Shown here piece by piece: positions 3,971 to 63,163 of a DNA stretch of 64,000 nucleotides. The notes under the pieces are model-generated. The model saw nothing but the letters and a program-made list of their open reading frames with translations. It did not search any database and was not told the origin of the DNA. Source of the stretch: an uncultured Candidatus Saccharibacteria bacterium (GTDB lineage Bacteria > Patescibacteriota > Saccharimonadia > CAILAD01 > JADZBC01). Position numbers and translations under genes: made by a program. The stretch's first letter is position 1. Every line of letters begins with the position of its first letter. The stretch spans positions 147,270 through 211,269 of the forward strand of contig CAZRJR010000001.1 in the NCBI GenBank assembly GCA_964600985.1. Reading direction: 5' to 3'.

Positions 3971-4056
3971 GCCGCGGTGGTGGAATGGTAGACACGCTAG
4001 CTTCAGGTGCTAGTGGGAGCAATCCTGTGGAGGTTCGAGTCCTCTCCGCGGTACCA
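3971..4056 (+). tRNA. tRNA-Leu (anticodon CAG), type II with a long variable arm. CCA is encoded.
   Basis: Acceptor stem GCCGCGG/CCGCGGT, anticodon stem-loop CTAGC-TTCAGGT-GCTAG, T-arm GGTTCGAGTCC. Closely resembles E. coli tRNA-Leu(CAG). Confidence 0.9.
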
Positions 4057-4098
4057 GCATAAAGCCCCAAGATAAGCTTGGGGCTTTATGCTGGTATG
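4057..4098. terminator. Bidirectional rho-independent terminator hairpin between tRNA-Leu and the convergent Rpf-like gene.
   Basis: gcataaagcccc aagataagctt ggggctttatgc: a 12-bp perfect inverted repeat flanked by A/T. Confidence 0.6.
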
Positions 4099-25076: not shown

Positions 25077-25092
25077 ATCTAAGGCTAACTAC

Positions 25093-59131: not shown

Positions 59132-59452
59132 ATGCCAGAACAAGCTACAAAACAACGCATCCGCATTCGCCTCAAGGCCTACGACAGCAAGATCATTGAT
59201 CAGTCAGCTAAGCAGATCCTGGACACCGCTATTCGAACTGGTGCCCAGGTAGCAGGGCCGGTGCCTTTGCCTACCGACAAAAACAAGCTTACGGTGCTCT
59301 CTAGTCCGCACGTGTTCAAGGACGCACGCGAGCAGTTTGAGATGCGTACGCACAAGCGACTAATCGACATTACCGAACCAACTCCTAAGACGATTGACTC
59401 GCTGATGAATCTCAACCTGCCAGCGGGTGTAGACATCGAAATCAAAATGTAG
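59132..59452 (+). CDS. rpsJ: 30S ribosomal protein S10.
   Basis: [11 protein letters not shown]...GPVPLPT...106 aa. Confidence 0.93.
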
Positions 59453-59465
59453 CATTGCCAAGGCA

Positions 59466-59497
59466 TACTAAAAACCCCTCTAAGTGAGGGGTTTTTA
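59466..59497 (+). terminator. Rho-independent terminator directly after rpsJ, where rplC would normally follow.
   Basis: aaaaacccctc taagtg aggggttttt agtatt. Confidence 0.75.
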
Positions 59498-59588
59498 GTA
59501 TTGGAGGGATAGATAGTATATATTGAAAATAATCACGTAATATGATAAAGTAATAGTGTCATCCACGAAGACGATGGGAGCAAGCAGT

Positions 59589-59867
59589 ATGACTGTAGTA
59601 ACGGTTTACTCACCTCGTCTTAAGGACGATATTGAGCTCGTGCCGAGGTGTGTTCGAGATGTCCTCGGGCCAATGGGGTTAAAGGTAAATCGTGTCTTTG
59701 AGCGAATTGATTCCAATATCCCTCAGGGCAGTCATCGCATAGTCGTTGAGCTGTTGGCTGAAGTTGACTCGCGTGTTAGCCAAGACGCCATTGGGGAGGC
59801 GCTCAAGCGGCTGTTCAATCACGTGCCTCCACGCCGTGAGGTTACGGTTGAATTCAAAGCTGCGTAG
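59589..59867 (+). CDS. Hypothetical protein (island gene A).
   Basis: About 92 aa from ATG 59589, which has a ggag 9 nt upstream. GTG 59556 is an alternative start. No recognisable domain. Confidence 0.4.
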   Translation: MTVVTVYSPRLKDDIELVPRCVRDVLGPMGLKVNRVFERIDSNIPQGSHRIVVELLAEVDSRVSQDAIGEALKRLFNHVPPRREVTVEFKAA

Positions 59868-60024
59868 GTGAGCGACATACGACGACAAGACGTGGCAAGA
59901 GCCCGCCCGGGTTTAACCTGGGCGGGCATTATGCATTTGAATGAATGTATACGTAAAATAGTGTGGCAATACTCAGCTAATCCTGTTACTATAATGGTCC
60001 GTCAATCTTTCTAGAGGAGTGTTC

Positions 60025-60384
60025 ATGCGCGTAGAATTCAAGTGTTTTCGGCGTAATGCTGCTGCCTCTGCGGCTGTAATGCGGCTGAAGCAGTATGCCA
60101 ACACTGCGATCATCGAGGTCCTCGAACTGGATCCCAACGACCATCCGGTCAACAGCTTGCCCTGCTCGTTCCCACCCTCGAACGAGGCTGGCATCGAGCT
60201 CAACATCAGTGCGGAAGAGCATGACTACCCAGGCGACGGCAACCCTGCCGAGCAGATCTACGCCTGGGTCAAGCATCGTGGTGGCTTCGGGACCGCGGGG
60301 GCAACTGTTACCATCCGTTGTCGCAAAAACGGACAGGTGAAGAAGTTCACGGCTGGTTCGACTAGGGTCCTCCAGTCGGTCTGA
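60025..60384 (+). CDS. Hypothetical protein (island gene B), visibly G+C-richer than the surrounding DNA.
   Basis: RBS gaggag lies 6 nt upstream of ATG 60025. 119 aa with no recognisable domain. Followed by two stem-loops (cccgcctgagtcac ttcg gtgactcaggcggg, and aaagcaccac ttaaa ctggtgcttt). Confidence 0.45.
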   Translation: MRVEFKCFRRNAAASAAVMRLKQYANTAIIEVLELDPNDHPVNSLPCSFPPSNEAGIELNISAEEHDYPGDGNPAEQIYAWVKHRGGFGTAGATVTIRCRKNGQVKKFTAGSTRVLQSV

Positions 60385-60585
60385 TCGGTTGACGGCACCC
60401 GCCTGAGTCACTTCGGTGACTCAGGCGGGAATTCCGAATTTATACACTTTAACTAAGCTAAAAGCACCACTTAAACTGGTGCTTTTAGCTTAGACAGAAC
60501 AAAAGTATTAAGTAGTTAATAGCTTGGTTCCGCCCACCTGGCCCCGTTGAAGGGGCCAGGTGGTACGTTATTGACTCGTGACGAA

Positions 60586-60906
60586 TCAGGCAGAAAGGGC
60601 AGCAACGGCCGTGTGGCCGCTCGGAGGTTCCCAGGGAATCAGCGCAGGGTAGATCTCCAGAGCCGGGATGAGTAGGTAGCGCTCCACGGTATCAGCAATA
60701 ACTGCTGCCTCTGTAGGGCTGATTGCTGGGGTCCCTCGACGCGGCCTGATCCGGATGACCTTTCGGTCGGGGAAGCCGTGTGCTTCAACTTTGTAGCGAT
60801 CACCTAGTCTCCGGGAGAGATCTGCGATCGTGGCATCACACGGAGCCGTACCCCGCAGGAGGGCACGCTTCCCACTCCACACCAGTCGGATGGCGCTTGC
60901 TTGCAT
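60586..60906 (-). CDS. Hypothetical protein (island gene C), G+C-rich.
   Basis: 106 aa. A hairpin (cacctggcccc gttgaa ggggccaggtg) lies just downstream of its stop. No recognisable domain. Confidence 0.4.
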   Translation of the reverse strand: MQASAIRLVWSGKRALLRGTAPCDATIADLSRRLGDRYKVEAHGFPDRKVIRIRPRRGTPAISPTEAAVIADTVERYLLIPALEIYPALIPWEPPSGHTAVAALSA

Positions 60907-61757
60907 GGCTTTCTCCTTTCGGGGTTGCTTGGGCCAGGCACACTACTCACAGTAAGTGTGGGCAGCGTGCCGCGTCCAAGACAATCCAGTCTCTGCCTGA
61001 TTTGTAAAAGAAACTAGAGCATCATGCGTGCCCTAATGAGTACAGATAATACTCTAAATATGTGGATAAGTCAATCTAATTCCTTACTAAACTATAGACA
61101 AGTAGTATGTAGTATGATACTATAGGTGTCTAAGTTTGGCGTTCACGCCAAATTGCACCTTATACACCTCGGACTTCGGTCCGTAGAATCAGCTCTCGAC
61201 GCGACCAGTGATGTTGTCAAGGCTTGATTCTACGGACTGATCCACGAACCCGGTTAGGGTACGCGGTAAGTCCAGCTCCGGGTCGATAGGAGGTGTAGTG
61301 GTGGGCCACTGAATGCCAGTGTAGCTTTCTCGCTCAGGCGACGATTGCTCCTCGCATGTCTAAAGCCATACCGCTCTACTTCCAAAAGATCCGGGCAAAT
61401 TCTCCCGCCATGCCACAAGCATGGTGGGCCTGGAGGGGTGGATTCCGCCCCCCTCCAAGGCTTGGCGCACTAAACTCGCGCGATTTAGGTCGCTGCAGTT
61501 GGTGTGTCGCCCGAGATGGCCATCCCGCCGGCCATCTCGTGGTTCGCGTCGTGCATTATATATTCACGGCCACAGTCGGAGACACGCCCGCGTCTCCGCC
61601 CCCGCAGCACGCGATCATCGCCCGCTTGCTGCCTCCGAGGGTGGGGCCGACCTTCACGGTTGGCCCCACCCTCCGCCCCTCTATATGAGGGGCTTTTGAT
61701 TTTGGTATTATTCCGACAGCTTAGACAGTCCAAAGCTTTTGTGCTTAAATAGAAGCT

Positions 61758-62021
61758 ATGAAGTCCAGCGCGAAAACAAAACGCTACTATGAGTCTGACT
61801 TTGCATTCTTGGTTAAGGCGGCGCTCTACCTTATACTTGGTCTCACCTGGTTATCTATTAGCTCACATCGCATAATTCCAATCGGCGTTATGCTTGGTTT
61901 TGCTTTTTCAAAGGTCGATGCCCTGCGGATTGATCGCAAAATAGAATATGCTCTCCTGGTGGTAGGTGCCCTGCTTGGGCTGGTATTTACTGGCATTGGC
62001 TTAACTTTAGCAATTGGTTAG
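61758..62021 (+). CDS. Hypothetical small membrane protein (two TM segments).
   Basis: 87 aa with two hydrophobic segments. Confidence 0.45.
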   Translation: MKSSAKTKRYYESDFAFLVKAALYLILGLTWLSISSHRIIPIGVMLGFAFSKVDALRIDRKIEYALLVVGALLGLVFTGIGLTLAIG

Positions 62022-62030
62022 GGCACTCGC

Positions 62031-62405
62031 GTGGTGAACATGGGGGGCCTAAACCCTACGCCGGCCTTTATAGTTAGCTTGCTGCCGATTCCATTCCTGC
62101 TCTACTATAATGTGATTGTAATGCGCTTGGTTTGGCAGGTGCGCATGCACGCGCGTAGCAAACATTTGCGTTACCCAGCGATTTATCAGCAGGGGAGGGC
62201 GCTTGGCTTGCTGTCGGCTTGTTTTGCGCTGGTGCCCGCAGTGGCTGAGTGGCGTGTATTTGTGCTTAACCCATACTGGGCGGTTTCGTACATAATTGGT
62301 GGAATTTTGGGTGTGTGGGCGCTTATTATGGTTCGCAAAGGTCTCGAGCAGGAGCTACGGCGCATTCCAGCAGCACGCTCAACTGGCTCTAAGCACAAAA
62401 AGTAG
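62031..62405 (+). CDS. Hypothetical membrane protein (three to four TM segments).
   Basis: 124 aa. Hydrophobic segments are separated by basic loops. Directly follows the preceding small membrane gene. Confidence 0.45.
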   Translation: MVNMGGLNPTPAFIVSLLPIPFLLYYNVIVMRLVWQVRMHARSKHLRYPAIYQQGRALGLLSACFALVPAVAEWRVFVLNPYWAVSYIIGGILGVWALIMVRKGLEQELRRIPAARSTGSKHKK

Positions 62406-62560
62406 TTGACACTCCTGTTATTTATCTGTTACACTAGCCACTGGTCAAAACAATTCCAAAGGCTTTACAGCTGGGAAGTGATTAGGTCCGGACTCCAACC
62501 TGGAAACCCATCTACTTGCCAGGATTTGTTTTTAGAACTAACAAATAATCAAGGATAACC

Positions 62561-63163
62561 GTGAAAGCTTTGCTCGCAAAAAAAATCGGCATGACCCAGA
62601 TCTTCGATGAATCGGGTGTTATGACTCCAGTCACCGTGCTGGAGGCTGGCCCATGCGTGATTACTCAGCTTAAATCAGTAGACCGCGATGGCTACAGTGG
62701 TGTGCAAATTGGTTTTGGTCAGGCTAAGCACCAGCCAAAGCCCCAGGCTGGCCACCTGGCTGCCGCCAAGGCTAATAGCCGGCACTTAGCCGAGGTGCGC
62801 ACTGATGAACCTGCCGATATGTCGGTTGGCGATGAAGTAAAAGCAGATGTTTTTGCCGTCGGTGATAGCGTGCAAGTAAGTGCTATTTCCAAGGGCAAAG
62901 GCTTTGCCGGCACCATTAAGCGTCATAACTTCAAGCGTGGACCAAAGACCCACGGTAGCCACAATTATCGCGCTCCGGGATCGATTGGTGCGGGCTACCC
63001 ACAGCACGTGTTTAAGGGCCAGAAAATGGCCGGTCAAATGGGCAACAAGCAGGTTACTGTAAAGAACCTTAAGATCATGGAAGTTGACGTTGCCAATAAC
63101 GTGCTCGTAGTGCGTGGCGCAGTGCCTGGCCCTAAGAAAAGTTTAGTAATGGTGAAGGGCTAG
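62561..63163 (+). CDS. rplC: 50S ribosomal protein L3.
   Basis: GTG start. ALLAKKIGMTQIFDE..., FKGQKMAGQMG. 200 aa. RBS aagga. Confidence 0.93.
   Translation: MKALLAKKIGMTQIFDESGVMTPVTVLEAGPCVITQLKSVDRDGYSGVQIGFGQAKHQPKPQAGHLAAAKANSRHLAEVRTDEPADMSVGDEVKADVFAVGDSVQVSAISKGKGFAGTIKRHNFKRGPKTHGSHNYRAPGSIGAGYPQHVFKGQKMAGQMGNKQVTVKNLKIMEVDVANNVLVVRGAVPGPKKSLVMVKG

Follow-up and report, generated by a model that had tools for sequence, protein, structure and literature searches.

The rpsJ-rplC spacer and its predicted RNA gene

In a 64,000-nucleotide (nt) stretch of an uncultured Candidatus Saccharibacteria genome (contig CAZRJR010000001.1; hereafter the window), rpsJ (59132-59452) and rplC (62561-63163) are separated by a 3.1-kb spacer that holds the small open reading frames (ORFs) A, B, and C, the small membrane-protein genes m87 and m124, and, between C and m87, a hairpin-packed stretch. 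The G+C content of this stretch, 0.64-0.66 against about 50% for the window, is as high as an earlier sequence-only reading of the interval 61430-61715 had suggested. We propose that this interval is very probably the 3' domain of an independently transcribed, structured non-coding RNA (ncRNA) gene of ~578 nt, encoded on the plus strand and belonging to a clade-restricted, undescribed family. We hold with high confidence that a conserved structured element exists here, and we are equally confident that it represents a new family of RNA genes whose structure is conserved.

Sequence and comparison with relatives show the following layout (Table 1): a conserved sigma-70-like promoter sequence, whose -10 is of the extended type; a 5' domain of 270 nt; a modular series of GC-rich hairpins (Hb to Hh); and the terminator Ht. 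Within the 5' domain, hairpin P1 and the conserved single strand UUGYACCUUAUAC are accompanied by a junction of several helices and by a long-range helix. Among the options that the sequence-only reading had left side by side, a structured RNA is the one strongly supported: the architecture is conserved, pairs covary, the two strands differ in stability, and the unit has both a terminator and a conserved promoter-like site.

Table 1. Position in the window, strand, and basis of the features between rpsJ and rplC (MFE, minimum free energy; bp, base pairs; R1 and R2, covariance models described in the text)
Feature	Position	Strand	Description and basis
Gene A	59589-59867	+	Small ORF family of the RNA-bearing module
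Gene B	60025-60384	+	Small orphan ORF in the rpsJ-rplC spacer
Strong hairpin cluster	60398-60563		Between genes B and C
Gene C	60586-60906	-	Small, fast-evolving ORF, divergent from the RNA and part of its clade-specific module; any functional link to the RNA is hypothetical
AT-rich zone	61046-61123		Divergent promoter-like sites
Promoter-like site	61095-61123	+	-35 TAGACA, 17-nt spacer containing TG, -10 TACTAT; consensus scan
G+C-rich stretch (RNA unit)	~61128-61705	+	
Whole predicted ncRNA gene	61128-61705	+	Fold z; homologous units in L085, L087-L090, L100-L103
P1 hairpin	61133-61154	+	AAGTTTGGC / GCCAAATT; 7 pairs kept in 9/9 sequences, some exchanged from GC to AU or from CG to UA (sequence-only alignment)
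Conserved single strand	61155-61167	+	TTGYACCTTWTAC; most conserved primary sequence of the family; part of the search pattern
P3, long hairpin of the 5' domain	61176-61240	+	Inverted repeat; ~19 pairs kept in 9/9 sequences, several changed on both sides
P4 and P5	61241-61397	+	P5, a long-range helix, encloses more hairpins; same nesting in independent MFE folds of all lineages
Ha	61405-61427	+	Lineage-variable hairpin; window, L088, and L102/L103 only
Hb	61428-61461	+	Loop AUUCCGCC; same place in 8/9 sequences; loop motif U[UC]CGCC conserved; within the R2 match 61427-61541
Hc	61464-61508	+	Same place in all lineages; length varies
Hd	61509-61543	+	Loop AUCCCGCC, then conserved GGTTCG; earlier quoted as gagatggcc..ggccatctc; base CCCGA/TCG.GG conserved
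He	61548-61570	+	Helix 1 of R1; 8/15 pairs changed on both sides, 94% of cells paired
Hf	61575-61599	+	Earlier quoted as ggagacacgcccgcgtctcc; helix 2 of R1; 9/9 pairs changed on both sides
Hg	61604-61632	+	Conserved loop GAUCAUCGCCC; helix 3 of R1; 7/11 pairs changed on both sides
Hh	61637-61673	+	GC-rich, 16 bp with one G-U; 100% of cells paired, 11/13 pairs changed on both sides
Ht, intrinsic terminator	61675-61703	+	Terminator scan; GCCCCTC-TATAT-GAGGGGC (61675-61693) and T-run
m87	61758-62021	+	Small membrane-protein gene downstream of the RNA
m124	62031-62405	+	Small membrane-protein gene after m87

A strongly folded unit

The four hairpins that had first drawn attention to the interval (Hd, Hf, Hh, and Ht) lie where the sequence-only reading had placed them. 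Hd is a perfect stem of 10 bp with the arms CGAGATGGCC/GGCCATCTCG at 61512-61539, and the arms of Hf, GGAGAC..GTCTCC, span 61578-61597. The stem of Hh, which had been described as a perfect stem of 14 bp, contains a G.T wobble (G61650 opposite T61661) that makes a G-U pair on the plus strand only, and it reaches 16 bp. The notion of a high density of long perfect stems was overstated, because the interval holds only one of the 17 perfect Watson-Crick stems of at least 9 bp that the window contains; that stable structure is in excess, by contrast, withstands the shuffled-sequence test. The interval folds with an MFE of -153.9 kcal/mol, against -108.3 +/- 5.2 kcal/mol in 200 dinucleotide shuffles, none of which does as well (z = -8.8), and its minus strand gives z = -8.5. 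Among 320 tiles of 200 nt, 61401-61600 ranks second (z = -7.5) and 61601-61800 fifth (z = -6.6), with a window median of -0.27.

The stretch is thus as structured as had been thought, but its extent had been drawn too short, since the interval covers no more than the 3' half of a unit of 578 nt with its start at ~61128. The whole unit (61128-61705) folds on the plus strand with an MFE of -297.6 kcal/mol and z = -11.9, compared with -280.5 kcal/mol and z = -8.8 on the minus strand; folded from 61125, it reaches -304.5 kcal/mol and z = -14.0, with the plus strand ahead of the minus by ~20 kcal/mol. In these coordinates, the 5' end of the RNA is deduced from the promoter and the 3' end from the T-run of the terminator.

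We also considered an alternative pairing among GAGCC, GGCUC, and GAGCC as a possible switch and set it aside: the outer strands form a helix, P2, around P3, which leaves no obvious switch.

Relatives and distribution of the RNA

Relatives of the locus were reached via protein homologs of the downstream m87. The source genome was assembled from SRR14932662 and SRR14932695, and the relatives come from SRR12404964, SRR26425191, DRR438534, SRR13208899, and GCA_020050275.1. The RNA is present in seven lineages with nine distinct sequences, namely the window, L085/L087, L088, L089/L090, L100, L101, and L102/L103; contigs with an identical S10 or gene C are from the same strain and show zero variation. 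The closest m87 homologs are 78-87% identical, and their contigs all hold a gene-free stretch of 800-900 nt at the same position, within a shared layout of rpsJ, one to three small ORFs that include a minus-strand ORF beside the gap, the gap itself, m87, and rplC, with an m124 homolog usually following m87. In remoter m87 homologs (~65% identity), rpsJ directly adjoins m87 or a DEAD-box helicase lies between them. The window L3 protein is at most 59-63% identical to its counterparts among GTDB representatives, the best of which come from Saccharimonadales/Saccharibacteria metagenome-assembled genomes; a GTDB scan based on L3 reached distant relatives only (<=63% identity), and the long rpsJ-rplC gaps in those genomes are ordinary ORFs with fold z near 0. 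Because the layout is kept in close relatives and absent from distant ones, we regard the module as specific to one clade and placed at a variable junction. The sequence-only reading had spoken of an island: a module it is, common to one Saccharibacteria clade and absent in distant relatives, rather than an insertion private to one genome. The idea of a private island had arisen with genes B and C, for which the protein database contains no homologs, and was dropped in view of the layout common to the relatives.

Both ends of the gene-free stretches align with the window (blastn, 72-80%). Over the full alignment, the seven lineages are 50-72% identical in pairs, and the unit measures 540-645 nt. 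What is conserved on the upstream side are both promoter hexamers and their 17-nt spacing, P1, the single-stranded UUGYACCUUAUAC, and P3, and further downstream the GGUUCG after Hd, the Hg loop GGAUCAUCGCCC, Hh, the terminator, and the m87 promoter. A degenerate pattern for the 5' part matches every member of the family and nothing else among the 103 loci that were fetched. The contig of the closest relative, L104, reaches only the last 45 nt of the RNA.

More widely, the rpsJ|rplC junction is interrupted in Saccharibacteria (loci L092-L099, L005, L020, L036, and L048), with m87 and m124 always present. Upstream of m87 the cargo depends on the clade: it may be absent, or consist of a DEAD-box helicase, of assorted ORFs, or of the RNA module. 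The junction looks like an insertion hotspot within an otherwise invariant S10 operon. A contig from another sample, L083, is identical to the window over 59951-62534 and then falls out of register at ~62535, indicating an indel immediately upstream of rplC; its annotation has no called gene across the RNA unit.

A conserved fold supported by covariation

Folded each on its own, the seven lineages give the same nesting of the 5' domain and the same 3' order, [Ha] Hb Hc Hd He Hf Hg [insertions] Hh Ht, and entire hairpins of the 3' domain are gained and lost between them. The whole-unit plus-strand folds have z-scores from -8.9 to -15.2, and in 7/7 lineages the plus strand beats the minus strand by 13-44 kcal/mol, an advantage that comes via G-U pairs.

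Since MAFFT alone misaligns the variable hairpins, we used an alignment of a closer subclade together with covariance models built from two relatives. In the subclade (five sequences, aligned by sequence only and scored on the MFE structure of L089), 90% of cells are paired, a share that drops to 38-46% once the partners are slid. Changes on both sides affect 21 pairs, versus 2-7 slid, a level that 0/500 shuffles reach. Across all nine sequences, again aligned by sequence only, P1 and P3 together provide 26 pairs, of which 10 show changes on both sides and nearly none is broken, and the 10 core pairs of Hh have 3/90 cells broken and four pairs changed on both sides. The exchanges are readily seen in single helices: one arm pair of P5 reads GGACUCC/GGAGUCC, GGAUUCC/GGAAUCC, or UGGUUCC/GGAACCA, and inner pairs of Hd alternate between G-C, C-G, and A-U, between A-U and G-C, and between U-A and A-U.

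Model R1 was built from L089 and L090 only and covers He to Ht in 170 positions. In the 64-kb window it has a single match, 61541-61706 on the plus strand (72.6 bits, E = 4e-18), over the full model; it also matches all other lineages, and gives no match in unrelated Saccharibacteria loci. Model R2, which covers Hb to Hd, matches 61427-61541 (32.3 bits, E = 3e-4), and the R1 and R2 matches jointly tile the interval. In a recount of the model-fitted alignment that excludes L085 and L088, 96.3% of cells are paired versus 42-48% with the partners slid, and 40/57 pairs are changed on both sides versus 5-7 slid and 20.7 +/- 2.9 shuffled (0/500).

Transcription signals and the possibility of a leader

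The promoter-like site is kept in 7/7 lineages, where the hexamers T[AT][GT]ACA and TAnnAT and the 17-nt spacing are retained and the spacer sequence varies. At the other end, Ht has the makeup of an intrinsic terminator, with seven pairs (six of them G-C), a 5-nt loop, and a downstream TTTTGATTTT. It is kept in all lineages, with a stem sequence that differs in L088 and L101 and with 4/7 pairs changed on both sides. Together with the strand asymmetry, these conserved signals suggest that the RNA is transcribed. Intrinsic terminators at 25092, 54882, 59465, and 61675 share a near-identical form, AAAAnCCCCTC-loop-GAGGGGnTTTT, which may be mistaken for a direct repeat or a target-site duplication.

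Between Ht and its ATG, m87 has a conserved promoter-like site of its own, TAGACA-17-TGcTTAAAT, with the ATG 7 nt past the -10; in relatives without the RNA, the equivalent -10 is likewise close to the m87 ATG. Because m87 has this site, we take the RNA to be a separate transcription unit. Over 61722-61760, the -10 is followed by agaagct and the ATG, with no Shine-Dalgarno sequence, and this arrangement is kept in all relatives, the RNA-less ones included; m87 appears to be leaderless.

The alternative that survives best, improbable as we judge it, is that the element is a very long cis-regulatory leader or attenuator of m87-m124-rplC-rplD, which would be transcribed from the promoter at 61095-61123 and stopped at Ht, or read through, under the control of a ribosomal protein or another signal, resembling L4-mediated attenuation in the E. 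coli S10 leader. The RNA is indeed co-oriented with m87-m124-rplC and directly upstream of it, with Ht ending 65 nt ahead of the m87 ATG, and the insertion of the module parted rplC from rpsJ, so that the downstream genes need a new transcription input. However, a leader would have no promoter between itself and the first gene, whereas a conserved -35/-10 is predicted between Ht and the m87 ATG, and a further promoter-like site lies ahead of rplC at 62406-62435. With 540-645 nt and ~20 helices, the RNA is also several times larger than the known ribosomal-protein leaders, that of the E. coli S10 operon being ~170 nt, and no anti-terminator pairing that would compete with Ht is seen in the folds.

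DNA elements, housekeeping RNAs, and coding potential

The independent RNA gene has further to be weighed against an element that acts as DNA, be it an attC-like recombination array, a set of REP-type palindromes, or the remnant of a mobile-element end, two of which the sequence-only reading had also entertained. We consider this very improbable. In its favour, the hairpins are mainly Watson-Crick, and the minus strand folds as well (z = -8.5); the module is missing in remoter relatives, and the rpsJ|m87 junction bears other cargo in other clades; and a terminator-like 30-mer occurs at both 59475 and 61676. In attC arrays, however, R''/R' cores flank imperfect palindromes of 57-141 bp, and a regular-expression search of both strands found no attC core sites in 59400-61800 and, within 61430-61715, neither an R'' (RYYYAAC) nor an R' (GTTRRRY) core. 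No hairpin has another copy in the window, and among the 103 loci the element occurs only at the syntenic position. Terminal inverted repeats are likewise absent, both from the ends of 61128-61705 and from those of the module, and there is no match in phage and plasmid collections (blastn with the 3.1-kb spacer) or in a viral collection (pattern scan). Neither a recombination- or binding-site array nor a mobile-element end is supported. The ORFs between rpsJ and rplC belong to no Pfam, NCBIfam, PHROG, or PADLOC family, and with them no integrase or cassette gene was recognized. The plus strand is favoured through G-U pairs in 7/7 lineages, and a locus that is syntenic in seven lineages and carries compensatory changes is not what decaying DNA would be expected to leave. 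As for the repeated 30-mer, it is the generic terminator form of this genome; a target-site duplication formed by the 30-nt repeat at 59475 and 61676 was considered and rejected because the same form recurs at 25092 and 54882.

Equally improbable, in our estimate, is a highly divergent housekeeping RNA (RNase P RNA, tmRNA, SRP RNA, or 6S RNA) or else a group I or II intron lacking an ORF. The size of the RNA and its tetraloop-rich, GC-rich helices are typical of stable cellular RNAs, none of these housekeeping RNAs is found elsewhere in the 64-kb window, and bacteria of the Candidate Phyla Radiation (CPR) are noted for unusual RNAs. At Rfam 15 gathering thresholds, however, the whole window yields tRNAs only, and no family such as OLE, ROOL, GOLLD, HEARO, or raiA, nor RNase P, tmRNA, SRP, 6S, group I/II introns, ribosomal-protein leaders, 6C, or CsrB/Rsm; the seven homolog loci stay below these thresholds as well, with three chance matches in all. 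At E <= 1, the segment 57000-64000 gives anti-hemB on Hh plus the terminator, at 25.7 bits against a gathering score of 49.5, and ftsZ-DE elsewhere. ARAGORN finds nine tRNAs and no tmRNA in the window. A short string in relatives, AAAGGAGUCCGGGCA, superficially recalls the CR-I element of RNase P, but it is one strand of P5 and is not conserved in the window. In addition, the 5' and 3' ends of the RNA do not pair with each other, the RNA is absent at the equivalent locus in other Saccharibacteria, and it evolves much faster than the L3 protein encoded nearby: the RNA is ~53% identical, and L3, judged by eye on the portion available in L085, roughly 85%.

Coding potential is, to us, practically negligible as an explanation. 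The Arg/Pro-rich ORFs that the sequence-only reading had seen overlapping on both strands are present but are not genes. No homolog spans the interval in one frame, and the claim that it is non-coding therefore stands. The ORFs of the interval and the spacer belong to no family in Pfam, PHROG, PADLOC, or NCBIfam, and the longest ORF of the interval (110 aa) has, among 1.84 billion representative proteins, four weak matches to 20-38-aa stretches of long proteins. Substitutions between relatives fall evenly on the codon phases (45/45/43 and 51/45/43), and indels are mostly not multiples of 3. That the interval is protein-coding, is a pseudogene of GC-rich foreign origin, or owes its structure to composition, for which one could cite the ORFs of 82-110 aa across it on both strands and a 183-aa Pro/Arg/Ser-rich ORF called across the homologous RNA region of L102 (GCA_020050275.1, 458-1009; probably a spurious protein annotation), can be dismissed with the lack of family matches and of any spanning homolog, the absence of codon periodicity, the frame-breaking indels, and dinucleotide-preserving shuffles that never attain the observed energy.

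Loop motif, neighbouring genes, and a possible function

CCGCC occurs in 14 of 100 predicted hairpin loops of the seven lineages, versus 0.35 expected from the composition of unpaired positions, and its complement GGCGG in none. By a strict criterion, one to three loops per RNA carry it in 7/7 lineages, a repetition that resembles Csr/Rsm RNAs by analogy only. The (U)CCGCC loops are located on Hb, Hf, and Hg or Hd, and the loop of Hf is UCCGCC in most relatives.

From these repeated loops on an array of hairpins we derive a proposal, by analogy with known RNAs, for what the gene might do. The RNA would accumulate as a stable molecule, and its hairpin array would display the YCCGCC loop motif two to four times, mainly on Hb, Hf, and Hg/Hd. 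Acting as a scaffold or sponge, it could thus bind one kind of partner in several copies; this might be a G-rich RNA or a protein, possibly one encoded by the adjoining fast-evolving small ORFs. We offer this mechanism tentatively. It is likewise a speculative suggestion that the modular array forms a ribonucleoprotein with a dedicated partner to which it shows YCCGCC, perhaps the adjacent proteins with a ferredoxin fold, and, as part of that suggestion and with no greater confidence, that the RNA and the small ORFs were acquired as a module at a variable hotspot in the S10 ribosomal-protein operon.

Members of the gene A family are 28-35% identical between lineages. A minus-strand ORF stands at the position of gene C in every lineage whose contig extends there, and what these ORFs share is a C-terminal P-x-[WF]-E..P motif only. 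Genes A and C diverge widely (28-35% identity or barely alignable) between lineages whose L3 is roughly 85% identical (by eye, on the part in L085). Searched against 5.8 billion proteins, genes B and C return self matches only. Single-sequence AF2 models of gene A (pLDDT 77) and gene C (pLDDT 63, a low confidence) have beta-alpha-beta-beta-alpha-beta, ferredoxin-like folds. We also asked whether gene A could be a diverged S10 paralog or a relative of gene C, and hhalign shows no relation.

Two further observations concern the DNA beside the RNA. In the divergent promoter/5' untranslated region (UTR) zone of gene C, a 26-nt block at 61027-61053 (consensus ATGCCCTAATGTGCACAAAnCATACTA) is conserved beyond the needs of a promoter and may be an operator or a 5'-UTR element. 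The hairpin cluster between genes B and C consists of a 14-bp perfect stem (60398-60429), a 17-bp perfect stem with A- and T-runs at its flanks that resembles a bidirectional terminator (60453-60493), and a 12-bp stem (60534-60563), and the tile 60401-60600 has the lowest fold z of the entire window (-9.0). The longest perfect stem of the window lies elsewhere, in a 20-bp perfect hairpin (4052-4096) that overlaps the 3' end of tRNA-Leu(CAG) (3971-4056).

Weighing the proposal

Several points weigh against our interpretation of the locus as an independent RNA gene with a partner:

(i) It is by inference only that we speak of a transcript, of its ends, and of its stability.

(ii) The covariation statistics rest on seven lineages (nine sequences) from metagenomic contigs, which is a small and related sample. 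The first alignment fitted with R1 paired non-orthologous hairpins in L085 and L088, and the strongest pair counts lean to structure because the alignment was fitted to the model.

(iii) The loop statistic counts homologous loops as independent, and the MFE fold of the window exposes CCGCC fully unpaired in the Hd loop only.

(iv) Profiles of the neighbouring proteins gave nothing significant and no recognisable RNA-binding family in PDB and Pfam, and, on the models, the adjacent ORFs show a generic ferredoxin-like fold only. On the question of a ribonucleoprotein, the neighbours are thus neutral.

(v) A first pattern scan of JGI metagenome contigs and of IMG/VR viral contigs found 0 members in each; therefore, either the family is rare or these collections do not contain the clade. 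A looser pattern gave 77 matches in the metagenome contigs, all of them rejected as chance, with no S10, L3, m87, or P1.

Significance and comparison with known systems

Large, highly structured RNAs are rare in bacteria; known ones are ribosomal RNAs, RNase P, tmRNA, group I/II introns, and later OLE, ROOL, GOLLD, and raiA, and their study has tended to yield unexpected biochemistry. No comparable RNA was found for CPR bacteria in Rfam 15 or in the literature, which we searched for large non-coding RNAs of Saccharibacteria and CPR bacteria with nothing relevant found. That a tiny CPR/Patescibacteria genome devotes ~0.6 kb to a conserved RNA with a predicted promoter and terminator, within an S10 ribosomal-protein cluster that otherwise hardly changes, speaks for a real function. 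The family is also a clean natural case of structure being held while sequence drifts to ~50% identity, with gains and losses of whole hairpins and a recurring loop motif. It could conceivably be the founding member of a new class of ~0.6-kb structured ncRNAs in one Saccharibacteria clade, a view that we hold jointly with the ribonucleoprotein and as tentatively. The coordinates, the search pattern, and the two covariance models make the claim directly testable. Set beside known systems, the RNA compares as follows:

(i) OLE, ROOL, and GOLLD (Rfam RF01071, RF03087, and RF01998) are large 'ornate' bacterial ncRNAs of ~500-800 nt, and the present RNA is like them in its size (540-645 nt), its many covarying helices, its narrow phylogenetic range, its being a unit of its own, and a function that is not evident from context. 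It differs in having no match to their covariance models at E <= 1, in its plan, a compact 5' domain followed by a linear run of independent hairpins, and in its host, a CPR bacterium. OLE has many invariant nucleotides and is linked to oapA-type genes, whereas here the primary sequence is poorly conserved and there is no such gene linkage; ROOL and GOLLD are often associated with prophages or tRNAs, whereas this RNA has no match in phage or viral collections.

(ii) With the CsrB/RsmZ sponges it shares tandem stem-loops of variable number, a repeated loop motif, an own promoter, and a Rho-independent terminator. Its motif, however, is YCCGCC and not GGA, with only two to four such loops per RNA; it has an extra, large structured 5' domain and ~1.5-2x the length of the CsrB type. 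The (A)GGA motif that marks Csr/Rsm RNAs is not what its loops carry, and no Csr/Rsm family of Rfam matches in the window or the homolog loci.

(iii) The 6C RNA of Actinobacteria and RNAs of the RsaE/RoxS type, which are ~60-120 nt long and have two or three loops with C-runs that pair with G-rich mRNA sites, resemble it in hairpins that expose C-rich loops. Here the loop is UCCGCC, with a central G, inside an RNA of 0.6 kb that has no Rfam match.

(iv) Like ribosomal-protein leaders, the RNA sits inside the S10/spc gene cluster with a terminator upstream of rplC-rplD. Unlike them, it is not upstream of rpsJ, is several times longer, and is followed by a predicted intervening promoter. The rpsJ motif is a 5'-UTR element of Peptostreptococcaceae (PMC11109978).

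(v) Integron attC sites and REP/MITE elements are similar in presenting dense, imperfect palindromes in non-coding DNA beside small orphan ORFs. The locus described here differs from them in lacking R''/R' cores, an integrase, and repetition in the window, and in being strand-asymmetric, syntenic, and marked by compensatory changes.

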